This document shows, piece by piece, positions 1-9,232 of a stretch of DNA of 39,175 nt; the first letter of the stretch is position 1; every line of letters begins with the position of its first letter. Source of the DNA: a virus (lineage: Duplodnaviria > Heunggongvirae > Uroviricota > Caudoviricetes); the IMG/VR virus record IMGVR_UViG_2627853910_000005; one strand, written 5' to 3'. The notes below the pieces were generated by a model. The model was given only the letters and a program-made list of their open reading frames with translations, was not told the origin of the DNA and made no database searches. The position numbers and the translations under genes are program-made.

Positions 1-234
1 ATGAAATCAAAAGACACCCTAAAGTGGTTCCCTGCGCAGCTTCCTGAAGTCAGAATTATCCTGGGAGATGCTGTCGTGGAAGTAGCAAAACAGGGAAGAC
101 CTATCAATACCAGAACATTGCTTGATTACATTGAAGGAAACATAAAGAAAAAGTCATGGCTGGATAACAAAGAATTATTACAAACAGCGATATCAGTTCT
201 TAAAGACAACCAAAATTTAAATGGTAAAATGTAA
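1..234 (+). CDS. Small prophage protein, YdfK/YnaE-like (77 aa)
   Basis: Complete ORF from ATG at 1 to TAA at 232-234. Resembles, from memory, the small cold-shock-induced proteins that sit next to pin in Qin/Rac-type prophages. Not verified by search. Confidence 0.45.
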   Translation: MKSKDTLKWFPAQLPEVRIILGDAVVEVAKQGRPINTRTLLDYIEGNIKKKSWLDNKELLQTAISVLKDNQNLNGKM

Positions 235-550
235 TATAATAAACTTACTTTTTTATCATTTTTCCACTTTAACAACATTTTGCTCCACTTTTCCACGACC
301 AAACAACTTGAAATCTGGTTAAAATAACACGCAACACTATTCTTCTTCCTTGAGTCCGCCCGGAACTCGAAAAACAAACCGAGTTAAAGCCATTTTTCAC
401 AAAATCGATTTTGGGTCTCACCAAAGTTACGGGGTTGCATACGCATTCGTTTATTTTCGAACGTGTACATACAAATATGCACAAAAATAATCAAAATTAT
501 TTTCTGAGATGCATTATGATATGAACACCAATTTCGTATAGAGTCTCACT

Positions 551-1141
551 ATGTCTCGAATTTTTGCTTACTGTCGGATATCAACGCTGGATCAGACCAC
601 CGAAAATCAACGCCGGGAAATCGAAAGTGCAGGTTTTAAAATCAAACCTCAGCAAATAATCGAAGAACACATTAGCGGCTCAGCAGCAACCAGTGAGCGT
701 CCTGGTTTTAACCGGTTGCTTGCTCGCCTGAAATGTGGTGATCAATTGATTGTGACAAAACTGGATCGCCTTGGTTGTAATGCAATGGATATCAGGAAAA
801 CAGTGGAACAACTGACCGAAACAGGTATCAGAGTGCATTGCTTAGCATTGGGGGGCATTGACCTGACCAGTCCAACAGGAAAAATGATGATGCACGTAAT
901 TTCAGCAGTCGCTGAATTTGAACGAGACCTTTTACTTGAACGCACTCATTCCGGGATAGTAAGAGCCCGCGGCGCAGGGAAACGTTTTGGTCGACCACCT
1001 GTGTTAAATGAAGAACAGAAACAGGTGGTATTCGAACGAATTAAGTCAGGTGTAAGTATAAGTGCCATTGCCCGGGAATTCAAAACCTCGCGGCAAACCA
1101 TTTTAAGAGCCAAAGCAAAACTTCAGACACCTGACATATAA
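551..1141 (+). CDS. pin: Serine recombinase, Pin/Gin/Hin-family DNA invertase
   Basis: 196 aa. N-terminal catalytic region [15 protein letters not shown] with the serine nucleophile and resolvase-type core; C-terminal HTH ([18 protein letters not shown]). Essentially matches my recollection of E. coli Pin. Confidence 0.92.
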
Positions 1142-1368
1142 AAAATAATCTCGGTGTGAGATGCTTTACGTCTTCCAAGCCCCCTTCCTTGCCGTAAATG
1201 GAAAGATACATCTAATTATAGAATTTATATGTTTTACCCTACGGCAGTGCTGGCCATTCAATATCCTGTGCAGTTGACGTATCAACACGGTTCAGCAACA
1301 CCCGATACTTCTTCCAGGCTTCCAGCAACGAGGTTTCTTCCTCCGTTGCATATACAGCTCACCTTTTT

Positions 1369-1662
1369 TCACCCACGATTAACCAACAGCCAGACCAGCA
1401 GACACGCCACCACCGGCACAGCAAAATCCATCAGGCTTGCCACATCCCACGCGCGCGGATCAAAACCGCCCCACCACGGCATATTCATTCGCTTGCCATG
1501 CCCGAACATTTCAATCCAGCGATATTCTGCCTGGGTGTGTTCACGCGCAATGAAGAACGTACAACCAGCTATCGCCCCGTAAGCCCAGTTCCCGGTAAAA
1601 AGACCAATCAGTAGCTGCGCAGCCACAGCACAAAGCGCATGAAGGAAAGGTGTTATATCCAT
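1369..1662 (-). CDS. Small predicted membrane protein (97 aa), function unknown
   Basis: ATG at 1660-1662 preceded by a strong SD (AAAGGAGGAGTA) that overlaps the stop of the upstream ORF. Two hydrophobic segments (ALCAVAAQLLIGLF and AVPVVACLLVWLLV). Last gene of the tail-fibre operon. Confidence 0.5.
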   Translation of the reverse strand: MDITPFLHALCAVAAQLLIGLFTGNWAYGAIAGCTFFIAREHTQAEYRWIEMFGHGKRMNMPWWGGFDPRAWDVASLMDFAVPVVACLLVWLLVNRG

Positions 1663-1672
1663 TACTCCTCCT

Positions 1673-2377
1673 TTATCCGATATCGCTTCGGGAAACGGAT
1701 AACAACTTTAATTCTGACTCAAGTTCATCAACTCTTTCAGTCAGCTTCTGGATATGGTGAATCAGTGGAACAACCAGACGTTCGTACATTACACCTTCGG
1801 CAACAAGGCCATTGCTGGAAATAGCTTCCGGTGCATCATCTTCGTTAGCTGGTCGCCAGTGTACAAACTGAGGGGCAATTTCTCCTACTTCCTCGGCAAT
1901 CAATCCGTAGAATCCCCAGTCACGCCTGTCATTTTCGCATTGTGACCTGTACCACACAGGGCGCATCCTGAAAATGAGATCGGCGTGCTCTGAATCTATT
2001 GTCTCTACTGAATGTTTATAGCGGATAGACGATGTTGACCGCAGCACAGACGAAATTGCGGGGTCAGGATTAAGATAAAGGTTTGCCGCCGCTGTAGTCG
2101 TGCCCAATCCCCACAAATAAAACGCTTCACGGCCAGTCAACGGGTAAAAATCTCCACCATAACGACCGCTTTCCAGAGCGTTCACTTCCAGTTTGTTTTT
2201 CAGCTTATTATCAACTTCAGTTTTTGTGTATCTGGTGCTGATATCCTGCTTTGCACTGGTCATATCAGCCTGAAGCGTTGATACTTTTCCGTTAATTGAG
2301 GAAATATCTTCCTTGGCTTTACTGACATCTCCCTTTAACGTGGTGATGTCTCCTGGAATTACTGTCGATGTAGCCAT
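1673..2377 (-). CDS. Tail-fibre-like protein with C-terminal intramolecular chaperone (peptidase S74-type) domain
   Basis: 234 aa. N-terminal coiled-coil-like segment, then a C-terminal region (DWGFYGLIAEEVGEIAPQFVHW ... VMYERLVVPLIHHIQKLTERVDELESEL) typical of auto-cleaving tail fibre/tailspike chaperone domains. SD GAGGGAG 5 nt upstream of the ATG. Confidence 0.55.
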   Translation of the reverse strand: MATSTVIPGDITTLKGDVSKAKEDISSINGKVSTLQADMTSAKQDISTRYTKTEVDNKLKNKLEVNALESGRYGGDFYPLTGREAFYLWGLGTTTAAANLYLNPDPAISSVLRSTSSIRYKHSVETIDSEHADLIFRMRPVWYRSQCENDRRDWGFYGLIAEEVGEIAPQFVHWRPANEDDAPEAISSNGLVAEGVMYERLVVPLIHHIQKLTERVDELESELKLLSVSRSDIG

Positions 2378-2386
2378 TTGTCTCCC

Positions 2387-2668
2387 TCACATCCAGCCAC
2401 GAAGTTGATGTTCAACTACAACCGCGTATTCATCGAATATTAACGATTTTTTTGCATCATTAATGATGCGCACGTTTACAAAATATCCATCTTCCTTAAC
2501 ACATACCGGTTCGCCATCTTCAGTCAGTTCTCCGGTTTCTTTGTACACGTTACCTATCACGTCAATAAGAATATCATCCTGCATCGACTCGTCATCATAA
2601 TAGCCAATGCTATCCATAAAGGCCGAAAAGTCGGCCCTGTCTGCAAATTTGAGTGTTAAATCTTTCAT
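2387..2668 (-). CDS. Hypothetical acidic protein (93 aa), translationally coupled to the side tail fibre gene
   Basis: Its ATG overlaps the stf stop codon (TAATG). Acidic composition. No recognisable domain. Confidence 0.4.
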   Translation of the reverse strand: MKDLTLKFADRADFSAFMDSIGYYDDESMQDDILIDVIGNVYKETGELTEDGEPVCVKEDGYFVNVRIINDAKKSLIFDEYAVVVEHQLRGWM

Positions 2669-5045
2669 TAGATTGACTCCCCCATCTGAGCATCAGTCAA
2701 TGCCTTGTGCCATATTCTGAAATTCCTGACATGACCAAATAAATGACGCAACCCGGCTGTAGTCTGGCCTCCAATACGGATAATTGCGGAGTTCTGAATA
2801 TAGGACCATGTGGCTTTCTTTTCGCTAGATATACGCCCGTTACTTACTGAGCACGTAGACTGATCTGACTTTACACGCATCCCCATAACCATTTTTTCAA
2901 GCGATGCGTTTTCGTTTACCCGTCTGTTAGCCAAACCTATATCACAATAAGGAAATCCGTCGTAATCTGTTGAACGACCGAAGCCAAGAATAATAGCCGC
3001 TCCGGTTTGATGACCGCCGGTATCAAAAACACGCGGTGCTGCATTTGGCGTTTTATACCAGTTCTTATGTACCTCACAAAGAACCGTAAAAGGAAGATTA
3101 TAAAGGTTATTCTTGATTGGGACTGTCACCATATCGCTTGCGCGAGTGCTTGCAGTTATATCAGTTACAATAAATGACGAAGCACTTGATCCACCTTCCA
3201 CTTGTGGAGTTGCGATATCCAGATAGTCTCCAGATGCTGTACCTGAACCTTTTACAGGAGCGTATTGAACCATCGCACCAATCATGCTCTCTGTATCTAG
3301 TGCATTAATTGTAGCCTGATAGAAAATCCAACCAGTAACCTCATCTTTTACAGCCTTTGCAATAATACGGTCTGCAGCAGTACCAGTTTTATCAATTACA
3401 AGTGTTGATAAATTGAGGTAAGCATCTCCCAAAAAAGTGTAAGTATAACCATCATGGTGTTCAAATCTTAAACGACACCTTATATTTTCAACATCACTTC
3501 TTACACGGCATGAAATGGTCACATATTTTTCATCACCTGTGACATCAAACCCTTTACTGCCAGAAATCGTTACGATATTAATAGCACTTGTCTGACCAAT
3601 AAGAGTATCTTTTACAGTAAATCTCCCATAAGTAAAATTAAAAGAATCCGTGGATATTTCTGTGAGTTCCAGATTGCCTGACTTATTCCATTTAGATGGA
3701 TTTGTTGAATTAAGCAGAAGATTAGTTCTTTGCCCCTCAATAAGCAGGCCATCACGTTCAAATCGTGGCTCATCAATGGCAGCCTCTGTCAGCACACCAG
3801 ATTTGTTAATATAGGTTGCTTTCGATGCACGTTTAAACTTAACAATCTTGTCGCCAGGCATCGTTATTTCGTCGTCACCAATAACAATCTTTTTATATGA
3901 TGGCAAAAAGCCCGTAATCATATCCAGTGAATCGTTAAACGGTATCCACACATCAGGCAGCGGCTGTAAGACATATTTATACGGATCTGCTGCCTGGCTT
4001 GCATACTCTCTGGCTGCGTCTTCACTTGCTTTTGCAGCGGTCTGGCTTGCAGCGGATGCTTTCGCCGAGTTCGCCGCTGCAGTCTCGCTTGTCTTTGCAT
4101 TGGTTTCACTGGTTTTTGCTGCTTTTTGACTGTTGGCTGATGCAGTGGCAGAAGCAGCCGCCGCGCTTGCAGAACCAGCTGCAGCACTCTCGCTTTGGGC
4201 TGCTGCATCCTGACTGTTTTTCGCCGCAGTTTCGCTGGCTTTGGCATTCGTTTCGCTGGTCTTCGCTGCCGTCTGGCTGGACTTTGCGTTAGTTTCACTC
4301 GTCTTCGCAGCTTTCTGGCTGTTAGCCGCAGCAGTTGCTGATCCAGCTGCTGAAGTCGCAGAACCGGCTGCCGCGCTCTCGCTTTGGGCTGCTGCAACCT
4401 GGCTGTTTTTTGCCGCAGTTTCACTGGCTTTGGCATTCGTTTCGCTTGTTTTCGCTGCCGTCTGGCTGGACTTTGCGTTGGTTTCGCTCGTCTTTGCGGC
4501 TGTCTCGCTATTTTTCGCGTTGGTTTCTGATTTTTGGCTGCTGTCGCGGAGTTTGCCGATGCAGTCTGCGAGGACGCTGCCGCCTGTGCGCTGTTAGCTG
4601 CATTTGTTTCTGAGGTTTTCGCCGCGTTCTTCGATGATGCCGCTGCAGTTTCGGATTTCTTTGCCGCTGCTGCGCTCTGAGAGGCGGCTTCGGCGTTGCG
4701 TGCCGCTTCTTCCACCATTGCCTCAAAACGACGCAATGCCTCCGGCATGACATCATCTTCCGTCATGGCACCGAGAAAATCATTCAGCGTACCTGGTCTG
4801 GAACCTTCATAGACGGTAATGGTCCCGGCATGTGAAGGCGGAAAACCTTCAACCAGCAGGGTGACGCTGTACTGACCATACTCAACATCCATGCTGTAAC
4901 GCCCGGCTTCATCCGGATTTTCAGAGGCCACCGTGTTCACCAGTACCGTGGTGCTGTTACGCTTTGCCTTCAGTTGAATAGTGCAGTTCTGTATTGGTTT
5001 TCCCGCACCATCTTTCAGCACACCTGAGATTTTTACTGCTGCCAT
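2668..5045 (-). pseudogene. stf: Side tail fibre (Stf) gene interrupted by a single-base frameshift
   Basis: The first ~160 aa match the lambda Stf N-terminus (MAAVKISGVLKDGAGKPIQNCTIQLKA...), followed by Ala/Ser/Thr-rich AAKTSETNA-type repeats. The frame breaks at an A5 run (plus-strand T5 at 4531-4535) and the sensible translation continues in another frame to a concanavalin/LamG-like C-terminal tip (RHLFGHVRNFRIWHKALTDAQM). One extra A would restore a continuous protein of about 792 aa. Confidence 0.7.
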
Positions 5046-5054
5046 ATCCACTCC

Positions 5055-5083
5055 ACAAAAAAGCCCGCCTGAACCGGCGGGCT
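5055..5083 (-). terminator. Rho-independent terminator after lom
   Basis: On the minus strand: AGCCCGCC-loop-GGCGGGCT stem followed by TTTTTTG. Lies between the lom stop (5110) and the stf start (5045). Confidence 0.5.
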
Positions 5084-5109
5084 GTCATAACACTGTGTTA
5101 CCTGGCTAA

Positions 5110-5709
5110 TCAGAACTTATAACCGACACCCACGATGAAACCGTCAGTGCGCCAGTCGCCACTGCCGGAGCCTTCATAAGCAATATCAATGGCCACGGAT
5201 TCGGTCGGGTTAAACTGCACGCCAGCCCCCCACGCCAGAGACGTGTTGCTGTGGCGACCGTCATCACTTCCGGTCAGCACATCGTGCTTTTTCCCCTTGT
5301 TGTCAGTTACGCGAAGATAATCCCCGGAGAAAGTCGACACACGGCTGTAAGCTACACCCGCCATCGCATACGCGCTGAACCATTCATTCACGCGCACAGA
5401 CGGCCCCGCCATTACGCTGAACCAGCGGTTACGAACGGAATCTTCATGCCAGCGGGTATCGCTGTAACGGGTCAGCTGGCGATTCTTGTCTCCTGCATAG
5501 CTGAATGACGTCACCAGCCCCAGTGTGTCCGTAAACTCATAACGGTATTTCACGTTAATCCCGTTCAGATCATCACTGCCGGGGACGTTCGTCGAGGCAT
5601 GAAGATACCCCGCGCTCAGCGTGGACTGATGTTCAGACGCCCATGCAGGCGCACCGGATACGGCCAGACAAATGGCTGCGGACAAAATGGCTGCACAAAC
5701 TTTACGCAT
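5110..5709 (-). CDS. lom: Outer membrane protein Lom (Ail/Lom family)
   Basis: 199 aa with signal peptide. Near-identical to my recollection of lambda Lom (MRK.CAAILSAAICLAVSGAPAWASEHQSTLSAGYLH...GFIVGVGYKF). Confidence 0.93.
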   Translation of the reverse strand: MRKVCAAILSAAICLAVSGAPAWASEHQSTLSAGYLHASTNVPGSDDLNGINVKYRYEFTDTLGLVTSFSYAGDKNRQLTRYSDTRWHEDSVRNRWFSVMAGPSVRVNEWFSAYAMAGVAYSRVSTFSGDYLRVTDNKGKKHDVLTGSDDGRHSNTSLAWGAGVQFNPTESVAIDIAYEGSGSGDWRTDGFIVGVGYKF

Positions 5710-5776
5710 AATTACCTCTCGCTTTTCTGCAATAAAAAAGGCGCCATTTCTGGCGCCCGTATATGGGTTATAAAAT

Positions 5777-8700
5777 TCAGCTGATACTGATGCCTGCGGT
5801 GGCTTTCTTCATCACCACAACCAGCAAATCGCTGATACTTGCTGTGGGATACCAGTCATTTACCAGCCATGCTGACACCGAAAACTCCAGCGTCATGTGA
5901 CCGTGACCGGCAGGCATATCAATAACGCCACTGTAAATCAGCGTATTATCCAGCGCGGTACGGTTATAAATTTCAGCACCGTTTTTCCGCACTATCAGAC
6001 GGCATGAGGAGTAAATATCAGTATGCTCTCTCTCATGTTTAGCGCCGCTGAATGCCACCGCAGGAATAACAATCTGCCGGTCAAACGGCTGATCGTCATA
6101 AACCCTGACGGTAATGGTCCCTGATGGCCACCGTTCCGGTGCACGGGAGTCCCGGGGGAAAGCTTTGCCCACTGTTTTAACGAGATCGCCTTCAATCTGG
6201 TTCGCGGACAGTTTTCCCAGAACCCGACAGTTCTCGTTAATCGTGACGTTGTTGAGCGTCCCGGAGTTCGCATTCACGTTACCGCTGATATCGGCATTTT
6301 TCGCCGTCAGCCGCCCATCCGGTGTCAGGGAAAATGCCGGAGGATTACCGCCGCTGGTAATGGTCGGAGCCGTCAGGCGTTTCAGGAACACGTCGTTCAT
6401 GAATATCTGATCGCCCTGACCAACAAACATTGGTCTTGTGTTGCCATTAGACGGATCAATAAACGCGATACGGTTAGCGGCAACCAGGAACTGGCTCAGT
6501 TTGCCTTCCTCCGTGTCCTCCATGCTGAGGCCAATACCCGCGACATAATGTTTGCCGTCTTTGGTCTGCTCAATTTTGACGCCCCACATGGCATTCCACT
6601 TATCACTGGCGTCCTTCCACTCTTTCGAAAACTCCTCCAGTTTGCTGGCGTTATCCTCCGTCAGCTCGACTTTTTCCAGCAGCTCCTTGCCAAGATGGGA
6701 TTCGGTTATCTGGCCTTTGAAAAAATCCAGGTAACCTTCCGCATCATCGCTCGCCCGACCAACAGCCTCCACGAATGCCGATTTGCCAACGGTGTTCACA
6801 CTGCGAACGTAAAAATAATAATCATGGCCCGGCCTGATATTGATACTGGCAGCTATCCAGTACAGCGCCGTGCCAAGATAGCGGGCTGTGGTTTCAACCT
6901 GCCTGATATCCGCAATCCGTTTTTCCGAGAACCAGAACTCAAACTGTACCGTCGGGTCATAAACCGCAAGATGTGGCGTGGCGGTTATCTGAAAATAGCC
7001 CGGTGTCAGCTCAATCCGAGACGGCGCTGCCGGTGCGGCAATCCGGAACGATACCGATGCCGGATCGCCCTGCAGCCCCCACGCATTTACCGCCCGGACC
7101 GTCAGCATGTAACGCCCCAGCGCCAGTTGCGTGAAGCGGTATGTGGTTTCCGTCGTCCGGGCCGTGCTGACCAGCCGCTCACTGCCGTCATCCGCTGCCA
7201 CGGTCAGGCGAAGCAGGAAGCTCACGCCCTTCACCACTTTCGGCGTGTCCCAGCGGGCCAGCACCTGATATTCCCCGCTGTCTGCGGTGACTTCGGCAGT
7301 CAGGTGCTGCACCGCTGGCGGCGTGACACCATTCACCGTGCCGCTCTGGTCGCCGTCAAAGTGCGCCCCGTTATCCACGATGGCCTCTTTCTCCGGTACA
7401 TGCTGCACGGCAGTGATGGCATACGTGCCGTCGTCGTTCTCACGGATACTCACGCAGCGGAACAGGCGCTGGCGCAACGTCGGCAACTTCAGCCCCCACA
7501 CGCTGTATTCAGCAACGCCGTCAGGAACACGGCTCACTTTCACCTTCACGCCGTCGGTGACGGACTGGACCTCCACGCTGACCGGATTACCCTCACCGTC
7601 AACCAGGCTTATCAGCGTGGTGCCGGAGGATGGCAGCGTGATTTCACGGTCGAGCGTCAGCGTCCGGGTCTGGCTGTTCACCGCCAGCACGCGACCACCG
7701 ATGCTGATACCGGCATAGTCATCATCGCAGATTTCAATAACATCGCCCGGCACATGGCGAAGCCCTTCTGCGCCCACGCTGAAATCCACGGTCTGCGTTT
7801 CCAGCAGTTCCGTTTTAATCAGCCACAGCCCGGCTCGGTGTGCCTGCCCCCGACTGGTACAACCAAAGGCATCCATCTTCGTGACATTACGACCGTAACG
7901 GGCAATGGCCTGCGTATCTTCAACAAGCTCTGTCGCCGTCTCCCAGCCGTTGTTCGGGTCAATCCAGTTCACCTCAACGGCATTATGGCGGTCCTTCAGG
8001 GCGCTGAAGCTGTAGCGGAACGGCGCGCCATCATCCGGCATCACCACATTACTGCGGTTATAGGTCCACACCTTATCCGACTGTCGGTCCTGCACGAACG
8101 TCAGCGTCTGCCCGTTCCATACCGGCATACAGCGCATCGCCGAGCAGAAATCACTGAGCACATCCCACGCCTTGCGCTGTGTGGTCAGGTAAGCGTTACA
8201 GGTGATGCGCGGCTCCGTGCCGCCAAAGCCGTCCGGCACCGACTGGTCGCAATTCTGGCCGATGACATACAGCGCCCATTTATCCACATCCGCCGCACCA
8301 AGACGTTTCCCCATGCCGTAGCGCGGATGGGTCAGCATATCCCACAGACACCAGGCCATGTTGTTGCTGTATGCCGGTTTTAACGTTCCGTCCCAGATAC
8401 CGCTGTATTGCCGCGTCTGCGGGTTATAGTTCGACGGCACCTGCAGAATGCGCCCGCGAAGATGATAATTACGGCTCACCTGCTGGCTGCCGAACTGCTC
8501 CGAGTCCACCTGCACGCCAACCAGTGCCGTGTTCGGGTAGCACTGTTTCACATCGATGATTTCGGTGTATGACGACCAGAGCGTTTTGTTCTGCAGCTGG
8601 TCTGTGGTGCTGTCCGGCGTCATCCTGCGCATCCGGATATTAAACGGGCGCGGCGGCAGGTTATCCACCACCACCGAGGCCAGATACTGCGAGGTGGTTT

Positions 8701-9172
8701 TGCCCTTAATGGTGATGTCTTTTTCCGTCACCCAGCCACCGTTACGCTGTATCTGAACCAGCAGGCGGACTTCCGATGGATTCCTGTCCCCCTTTGAGGT
8801 GGTTTCCACCAGTGCCTGCACACCGAAGGTAAAGCGCAGACGGTCGATGTTTGCCGACGTGATGGTGCGGGTGATCGGCGTGTCATATTTCACTTCCGTA
8901 CCCAGCACCGTCTCGGAGCCGGAGGATTCAAATCCCTCCGGCGGTGTCTGCTCCTGTTCACCTGCCCGGAACACCACCGTGACGCCGGAGATGTTGGTAT
9001 TCCCCTCAGTGTCCAGCACTGGCGTACTGTTCAGCAGCACGCTTTTTAATCCATCCACCGGACCTTCAATCGGCCCTTCGCTGATGGCATCGATCACACT
9101 CAGCAACTGCGTGGACTTCAGGTTGTCCTTCGCTTCGCGCGGAGTATGCCCCTTACTGCTGCCTTTACCCAT
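5777..9172 (-). CDS. J: Tail tip / host specificity protein J
   Basis: Collinear with lambda J along its full length, from [18 protein letters not shown] at the internal ATG at 9170-9172 to the C-terminal receptor-binding region. The track ORF starts earlier at a GTG (9217) that has no SD. Confidence 0.93.
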
Positions 9173-9232
9173 TCCTAACGCTCCATAAACGACAAAACCG
9201 CCCGGAGGCGGTTTCACATAAAACGTTTTTCA

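Follow-up and report, generated by a model that had tools for sequence, protein, structure and literature searches.

Organization of the locus

The window analysed here is a stretch of 39,175 nt of viral DNA (IMG/VR record IMGVR_UViG_2627853910_000005, Caudoviricetes), and the element under study is a group of three genes at positions 1369-2668 on its minus strand, directly behind the side tail fibre gene stf. All coordinates are those of the whole stretch, and the three products are called p93, p234 and p97 after their lengths of 93, 234 and 97 amino acids (aa). The window belongs to a lambdoid prophage of Escherichia coli. Bases 1142-2700 are 100% identical to prophages that adjoin prfC in strains S88, APEC O1 and many others. 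Along the minus strand the order is J, lom, a terminator-like hairpin, stf, p93, p234, p97 and a tfa stub (Table 1); phage 21 has an annotated terminator at the position equivalent to the hairpin.

The initial annotation of the window, made from the sequence alone, had described three packed open reading frames (ORFs) after the fibre gene, and we confirmed both their coordinates and their junctions. The stop codon of stf and the start codon of p93 overlap as TAATG, 9 nt (GGGAGACAA) lie between the p93 stop and the p234 ATG, and 10 nt (AGGAGGAGTA) separate the p234 stop from the p97 ATG, which has a strong Shine-Dalgarno (SD) sequence. All three products match PHROG profiles (p93, PHROG 1361, E=3.6e-46; p234, E=1.5e-140; p97, E=5.8e-59), and their exact sequences are present in database clusters of 703, 2928 and 1313 members, respectively. 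Among 5426 complete E. coli genomes, the p234 gene was found in 746 (~14%), nearly always at full length, and the p97 gene in 1906 (about a third). These results indicate that p93, p234 and p97 are real genes and not chance ORFs. On the evidence presented below we consider it probable that the late tail operon of this prophage ends in a horizontally mobile, two-part side-tail-fibre cassette, which is followed by an unrelated accessory gene.

Table 1. Features of the fibre locus and its surroundings, listed along the minus strand.
Feature	Coordinates	Strand	Remarks
J	5777-9217	minus	
lom	5110-5709	minus	
Terminator-like hairpin between lom and stf	5062-5083	minus	sole such site on that strand in 1100-5200
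stf, proximal side tail fibre	2668-5045	minus	792 aa when intact (E. coli S88)
Globular tip of Stf, last ~427 aa	2668-3951	minus	GTA head-spike-fibre-like domain, then ConA/LamG/galectin-like end
p93, acidic 93-aa protein	2387-2668	minus	start overlaps stf stop
p234, probable minimal distal fibre subunit	1673-2377	minus	N-terminal putative docking motif, helical stalk, short segment before the predicted cleavage site, S74 chaperone
p234 residues 1-25, conserved N-terminal motif MATSTVIPGDITTLK...	2303-2377	minus	proposed anchor to proximal fibre
p234 residues 116-234, Peptidase_S74 domain	1676-2032	minus	Ser116 at 2030-2032, Lys121 at 2015-2017
p97, predicted three-helix inner-membrane protein ('Ybl63', PHROG 1443)	1369-1662	minus	
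tfa remnant, last 36 codons	1239-1349	minus	RefSeq annotation of identical S88 sequence and translation
Orphan Pin/Hin-type DNA invertase, outside the cassette	551-1141	plus	Pfam Resolvase E=3.6e-36 and HTH_7

A Peptidase_S74 domain at the C-terminus of p234

The C-terminus of p234 is a Peptidase_S74 intramolecular chaperone, as the initial annotation had supposed from its appearance. Pfam family PF13884 (Peptidase_S74) matched residues 116-172 above threshold (27.3 bits against a cut-off of 22, E=4.4e-6). Ser116 and Lys121, spaced five residues apart where the domain begins, were invariant in 28 aligned homologues and align with the TSGIEYK motif of LtfA from phage DT57C; the C-terminus of the same LtfA is also the best sequence match of p234 in the PDB (E=5.5e-7). 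In the AlphaFold2 (AF2) model of the monomer, residues ~125-234 were predicted with a local confidence (pLDDT) of 83-94. A Foldseek search of the PDB with this domain returned chaperone structures of MyRF (ICA), GA-1 and endoNF in all of the top 11 places, the best being 7dc3 (E=7.4e-6, probability 1.00), with 3gud and 3gw6 also among the matches. The K1F endosialidase, the GA-1 neck appendage, T5 pb1 and MyRF thus share with p234 the S74 family, the Ser-Lys dyad and the predicted fold. In those proteins, however, it is a large fibre or spike that carries the domain at its end, whereas p234 has only 115 residues ahead of it.

Part of this N-terminal region is helical. The model contains helices at residues 11-47 and 52-62, with moderate confidence for the long helix, and the helical part showed a weak likeness to trimeric coiled coils, namely those of the P22 tail needle and Lpp. 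A coiled coil of about 100 residues had been expected here; its helical character was borne out, but its length was not, as ~50-60 residues are helical and ~50 further residues are not placed by the model. Cleavage is predicted, by homology, before Ser116; the N-terminal product would have 12.4 kDa and the released chaperone 13.8 kDa.

The third gene of the cassette as a slot for distal fibres

The same gene arrangement is found in at least four phage groups (lambdoid, T1-like, T5-like and Nonagvirus), with the same overlaps and spacers of ~9 nt. This three-part cassette consists of a fibre with a ~430-aa head-spike/galectin-like tip, an overlapping acidic protein of 92-93 aa, and a fibre that extends from a conserved N-terminal motif to an S74 domain. 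The first two genes of the window's module therefore represent a widespread and already described two-part tail-fibre cassette, comprising a helper and a short outer fibre piece of the kind predicted to cleave itself. The initial annotation had called the module unusual and a small, free-standing chaperone protein odd. A neighbourhood comparison, which revealed the same tip, p93 and motif-bearing third gene in other phage groups, does not uphold either description: the cassette is common and conserved, and free-standing S74 proteins of 220-350 aa that share this N-terminus regularly occupy its third position.

The start motif M(A/V)TxTxIPxDIxxLK is present in the products of the window, PhiR49_1, HannyBb, KarlJaspers, SECphi27, JenP2 and IrisVonRoten. 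Between the motif and the S74 domain, p234 has ~90 residues. Alleles of 343-348 aa have ~200 residues at this position, which form a receptor-binding-like domain with a weak match to T4 gp34, and IrisVonRoten Gp24 (574 aa) has two receptor-binding-like domains. When the 234-aa allele was compared with a 346-aa allele, likeness was restricted to residues 1-27 (63% identity) and a faint match of the chaperone. We also scanned IMG/VR with the back-translated motif and obtained at least 120 matches, which are mostly from E. coli prophages and hence not independent events. Among the matches listed, 120 of 120 start genes of this kind; where the flank could be tested, p93 precedes the gene in all 118 cases and the tip in all 109. 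Across the lambdoid, T1-like, T5-like and Nonagvirus contexts, the tip, p93 and the N-terminal motif are constant and the fibre shafts differ. From this we infer that the third gene is a plug-in slot for distal fibres, with a docking peptide of ~25 residues. Because longer alleles of the same slot carry receptor-binding domains, p234 would be its minimal allele.

A side observation concerns the T5-like Salmonella phage VSe12 (4898-6518), in which the gene after the p93 homologue is without the N-terminal motif and the next ORF, of 80 aa, resembles the end of an S74 chaperone domain. The distal-fibre gene of this phage may be split or degraded.

p234 aligns with the C-termini of fibre proteins of 355-409 aa and, in a PHROG profile of 1385 positions, with the final ~240. 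This could also be taken to mean that p234 is a functionless relic, the terminal part of a long S74 fibre that recombination left in place. The initial annotation had likewise considered a piece of a fibre acquired from another phage by recombination, and other relics, the tfa stub and the orphan invertase, are located nearby. The conservation of p234 makes this highly improbable. Its ORF is intact and has its own SD sequence, its N-terminus is specific and conserved, and its catalytic residues are invariant. Outside lambdoid prophages, its closest relatives are T1-like proteins of 220-235 aa (57-61% identity). Full-length identity in T1-like phages is 55-61%, and these phages are virulent and do not keep junk genes; the gene is also present in the 746 E. 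coli genomes mentioned above.

Comparison with described fibre systems

The T5-like phage IrisVonRoten (Bas32) provides the closest described counterpart. Its Gp22, Gp23 and Gp24 are encoded in the same order and with the same spacing as the genes of the window; the tip of Stf is 65% identical to Gp22 over 429 aa, and p93 is 38% identical to Gp23 (92 aa, E=2e-24). Gp24 starts with MVTKTVIPTDITKLK and ends in an S74 domain, and its N-terminal motif and intramolecular chaperone (IMC) were matched separately to p234. In published AlphaFold-Multimer models, Gp24 together with its IMC is attached to the proximal fibre Gp22, the galectin-like end domain of Gp22 protrudes, and Gp24 is the receptor-binding fibre; the small middle protein, Gp23, is not discussed (BASEL; PMC11990801). 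The two loci differ in several respects. Gp24 is 'T-shaped' and has two receptor-binding domains, whereas none is recognisable in p234. IrisVonRoten is virulent and without p97, and the shaft of its proximal fibre is of the T5 type, in contrast to the lambda Stf type found here. The shared gene order and these models lead us to regard the window as a lambdoid version of the described cassette, and p234 as most likely a minimal distal fibre subunit and not a stray fragment.

Nonagvirus JenP2 has the same order of three genes in gp23-25, and its gp25 carries the N-terminal motif of p234. In the T1-like phages KarlJaspers (bas06_0037-0035) and SECphi27 (gp81-79), the tip is 45% and the 92-aa protein 53% identical to the corresponding parts of the window, the value for the tip being that of the KarlJaspers lateral fibre. 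Their third gene encodes an S74 protein of 225-235 aa, about 59-61% identical to p234 and with the same minimal architecture, which is annotated as a putative chaperone only. The T1-like locus differs in the attachment end of the fibre and in having no membrane protein after the cassette.

A two-polypeptide fibre with C-terminal S74 domains and predicted self-cleavage is also known from the branched, L-shaped tail fibres LtfA/LtfB of the T5-like phages DT57C and DT571/2, an older precedent in which the second fibre protein is held on the first by a short conserved N-terminal segment (PMC4728585; PDB 8hqz). The docking sequences of DT57C are different, however, its fibre has no galectin-like tip, and no p93-like gene has been reported for it. 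Moreover, LtfA and LtfB are both large proteins with receptor-binding regions, unlike p234. The slot after J and lom and the N-terminal Stf domain are shared with lambda Stf/Tfa and with the stf-tfa pairs of Rac and Qin, but the tip here is of another kind, and of tfa there is only the stub of 36 codons further downstream. Neither p93, p234 nor p97 had a Tfa-family match in Pfam, PHROGs or NCBIfam, which agrees with the original suggestion of an alternative system for the fibre tip or its assembly that replaces Tfa. Literature searches on PhiR49_1, on ECOR13 prophages and on virion proteomics of the S74 protein returned nothing usable.

The tip of Stf and its probable partner p93

The tip of Stf matched NCBIfam GTA_spike_fiber above the cut-off (E=3.1e-16) and the head spike fibre of PDB 6tb9 (E=2.4e-4), and Laminin_G_3 matches remained below threshold. 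This type of tip was found in 220 phage records. In addition, the tip is 92% identical at the protein level to positions 82641-83921 of Salmonella phage vB_Si_CECAV_FGS017 (PP429239.1), a virulent T5-like phage in which the matching region is the tip of the lateral fibre. Such close likeness indicates a recent exchange of the tip cassette, which clearly moves between virulent and temperate phages.

The product of the gene that follows, p93, is acidic (pI 4.17), as originally noted. Searches of Pfam, NCBIfam, PADLOC and the PDB sequences gave sub-threshold noise only, and none of 16 relatives of p93 had a Tfa-family match in Pfam. A search of 1.8 billion representative proteins yielded 48 matches, all of them short stand-alone proteins. 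Three long matches were judged spurious, as they aligned only through repeated stretches of 26-30 residues. Because the valid matches all stand alone, there are no informative fusions of p93 among them.

The genomic position of p93 was more revealing. In phage 21, KarlJaspers, SECphi27, JenP2, VSe12, IrisVonRoten and EmilHeitz, a homologue immediately follows the same tip, and in all loci read the start of the ~92-aa middle gene overlaps the stop of the fibre gene. In the phage records, p93 occurs in 181, always at the end of a fibre gene, against the 220 with the tip and ~45 with the p234 type. Phage 21 has the tip, its p92 and p97 and is without the S74 gene; in PhiR49_2 and rV5-like phages, too, no distal-fibre gene accompanies the tip and p93. 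These counts and loci show that p93 tracks the tip and not the distal fibre. Its co-occurrence with the tip and its translational coupling suggest that p93 is probably a tip-specific assembly partner in place of Tfa. In a more tentative reading, it would define a separate class of chaperones for fibre tips that has no relation to Tfa.

The same loci bear on the possibility that p234 is not a component of the virion but acts in trans as an assembly chaperone for Stf. GenBank names of its homologues ('putative lateral tail fiber chaperone', 'chaperone of endosialidase') are in line with such a role, and so are the lack of an obvious receptor-binding domain and the composition of the 115 residues before the predicted cleavage site, about half of which are helical. 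On the other hand, phage 21 and many others carry the same tip and p93 without an S74 gene, and the tip therefore does not need one. Furthermore, the same slot, with the same N-terminus, holds large receptor-binding-like alleles (HannyBb, 343 aa; JenP2, 348 aa; IrisVonRoten, 574 aa), and in K1F endosialidase, T5 pb1 and DT57C the S74 domains work in cis, on the stretch immediately before them (PMC4728585), which speaks against action in trans. Since the tip occurs without p234 and the slot carries true binding fibres, we regard a trans-acting chaperone as unlikely.

p97 is a separate accessory gene linked to receptor-binding proteins

The last gene of the module had been described as encoding a two-helix membrane protein with a strong ribosome-binding site. 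Its membrane character and ribosome-binding site were both supported; its helices, on the other hand, number three in the AF2 model (residues 4-23, 26-53 and 74-96; pLDDT 93.6). The hydropathy profile of p97 shows hydrophobic stretches with a 34-residue segment between them, which holds all five Lys and Arg residues of the body of the protein. By the positive-inside rule applied to these residues, p97 is predicted to have its N-terminus inside, its loop (residues 40-73) in the cytoplasm and its C-terminus outside. We detected 575 homologues. Many polar residues of the family are invariant (D2, H8, Q16, R40, E41, Q44, E46-W49, R58, M61-D68 and D79); the invariant loop reads AREHTQAEYRW...MPWWGGFD. 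The family carries no annotation anywhere, there is no Pfam family for p97, and searches of Pfam, NCBIfam, PADLOC and PDB sequences gave sub-threshold matches only. A fold search likewise gave best values of E=2.9 in the PDB (PsaL, not significant) and E=0.55 in BFVD (an uncharacterised protein).

The homologues examined occur in 14 distinct kinds of genomic context, and in 12 of these, the present cassette included, the gene lies directly after that of a receptor-binding protein. The upstream genes are diverse. In P2/HP1-like prophages they encode an S74 fibre (Leclercia) or a Phage_tail_fib fibre (Aeromonas), and in Cobetia phage Carin-5 an S74 tailspike. Other homologues follow pectate-lyase and GDSL tailspikes, Tfa in phiHAP-1 and gpJ in Comamonas, and in the P22-like phage Gally the homologue occupies the slot beside int, at a distance of 240 nt from the preceding tailspike. 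In phage 21, p97 comes directly after p92. The idea that p97 always follows S74 fibres was rejected, as Pfam scans showed several upstream receptor-binding proteins without S74. In Aeromonas rivipollensis the homologue is an ordinary stand-alone chromosomal gene in a clearly non-phage setting, and the one remaining context was ambiguous. The cassettes of T1-like, T5-like and Nonagvirus phages are without p97, and in E. coli the gene is 2.5 times more prevalent than p234.

As a side observation, the region beyond p97 differs among related prophages. Prophages of the phage 21 type carry, beyond p97 and on the opposite strand, the sitABCD operon for an iron/manganese transporter, so that their cargo begins immediately behind p97; in the window this position is occupied by the tfa stub and the invertase.

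The close packing of the locus could be read as a sign that all three genes form one functional unit, in which the fibres would depend on p97 for their maturation or function, be it through its handling of the released chaperone or through joint action with glycan-binding fibres at the membrane. The short distance to p234, the strong SD sequence and the lack of a promoter-like site of its own would fit such a unit. So would the S74-bearing fibre and tailspike upstream of the homologues in Leclercia and Carin-5, and the position of p97 downstream of a distal-fibre gene in 73 of 76 testable loci among the IMG/VR matches listed. Nevertheless, T1-like, T5-like and Nonagvirus phages have a working cassette and no p97, and p97 follows receptor-binding proteins that have no S74 domain, such as the Stf of phage 21, the P22-like tailspike, the pectate-lyase and GDSL tailspikes and Tfa. 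It is also found outside prophages, in Aeromonas, and fibres assemble in the cytoplasm, which counts against a part for p97 in their maturation. We therefore judge a single unit to be very unlikely and conclude that p97 is a separate accessory gene and not part of the fibre. This accords with the initial proposal of a separate accessory gene, given the absence of p97 from the cassettes of virulent phages and its presence in phage 21 without the S74 gene. That proposal had further cast p97 as a moron, and here the classical form of the concept found no support. In a crude consensus scan, no promoter- or terminator-like site flanked p97 on its strand, and the gene starts 10 nt behind p234. As arranged here, p97 resembles a final gene of the late operon rather than a self-contained moron.

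The linkage of p97 with unrelated receptor-binding genes, together with its high conservation, suggests that it acts on a conserved function of the host envelope. With low confidence, its likeliest role may be protection against superinfection, receptor masking or interference with an envelope function. A fuller proposal, which we put forward as a tentative possibility, is that p97 belongs to an undescribed family of three-helix inner-membrane proteins, with a nearly invariant polar loop, that move with glycan-targeting receptor-binding genes in lambdoid, P22-like, P2/HP1-like and larger phages. By acting on a conserved envelope function, for example by blocking DNA entry or altering the export of surface glycans, such proteins would shield the lysogen, the infected cell or the progeny phage from the accompanying class of receptor-binding protein.

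State of stf and remnants of an older fibre module

The N-terminal ORF of stf matches Pfam phage_tail_N (E=2.4e-67), and PHROG 1419 spans both halves into which the gene is divided in the window. A 1-nt deletion in the homopolymer at 4531-4535 (T5 on the plus strand; T6 in S88) shifts the frame and splits stf into ORFs of 377 and 427 aa. The S88 prophage is otherwise 99.9% identical, and the alignment with it shows one gap and one mismatch in 2600 nt. In other E. coli loci that we sampled, stf was broken in three of four, by an IS66 insertion or as split ORFs, and p93 and p97 were intact there. The breaks may reflect real decay or homopolymer sequencing errors, as the assemblies fit either. 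Separately, the Ala/Ser/Lys-rich shaft at ~4075-4509 contains direct repeats at an offset of 189 nt, and secondary BLAST matches against S88 revealed two 246-nt stretches that are 83% identical.

On the other side of the cassette, a resolvase/invertase gene lies 230 nt away, beside the tfa stub; like ydfK, it is on the plus strand. This proximity raised the idea that the cassette is one orientation of an invertible host-range switch operated by a Pin-like invertase, in the style of the G segment of Mu, the C segment of P1 or the P segment of e14. Near the cassette, however, there is no gix- or hix-like site with up to three mismatches and no AAACC..GGTTT core; positions 1-6000 contain no inverted repeats longer than 30 nt at 70% complementarity, and a second, oppositely oriented fibre end was not found. 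With no support from gix/hix-like sites, the AAACCnnGGTTT core or inverted repeats in 1-6000, the invertible segment was rejected, and we assign it next to no probability. The tfa stub and the orphan invertase are probably the remains of an older invertible stf/tfa module that was displaced by the present cassette.

A model of the fibre cassette

In the model that we favour, Stf would form the proximal fibre, and its last ~430 residues would be a globular and probably glycan-binding end (head-spike-fibre-like, then galectin/LamG-like). The TAATG overlap would couple translation of p93 to that of Stf, and p93 would serve as the dedicated assembly partner of the tip, in the place of Tfa. p234 is proposed to form trimers by way of its helical stalk; the S74 domain would bring about folding of the short preceding segment, after which it would remove itself by cleavage before Ser116. 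The remaining stalk of ~12.4 kDa would dock, by its conserved N-terminal ~25 residues, on the distal end of Stf. Alleles of 346 to 574 aa in the same slot would hold genuine receptor-binding domains between the N-terminus and the S74 domain. p97 would stand outside the fibre, as a conserved inner-membrane protein that travels with the receptor-binding-protein genes of temperate phages.

The data show the layout of the genes, the identity of the domains, the synteny and the modularity of the cassette, whereas docking, cleavage and the roles of p93 and p97 are deduced. Several observations weigh against parts of this model. p234 is a bare stalk without a recognisable variable receptor-binding domain, and GenBank names its T1-like homologues as putative chaperones of the lateral fibre. 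The AF2 monomer is unreliable at residues 62-115 (pLDDT <50), although a segment whose folding depends on trimerisation would be expected to model poorly. Both the cleavage of p234 and its attachment to Stf in virions are deduced from likeness to other fibres. The role of p93 is drawn from co-occurrence, and the searches made detected no relative of it by family or fold. The coupling of p97 to the late operon and its chromosomal homologue in Aeromonas are a poor fit to a simple exclusion gene. Finally, because stf is frameshifted in the window, the cassette may be inactive in this strain.

Implications

In many E. coli prophages, and in T1-, T5- and Nonagvirus-type phages of collections used for therapy, it is the cassette that determines specificity at first contact. 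A plug-in distal fibre in third position, attached by a docking peptide of ~25 residues, would offer a simple handle for engineering the host range of lambda-like vectors. The fibre part is already known in kind, and what remains novel are the two orphan small proteins, p93 and p97. Both are abundant, yet they belong to no described family, and p97, which about a third of the complete E. coli genomes carry, shows a consistent linkage to genes for receptor-binding proteins.

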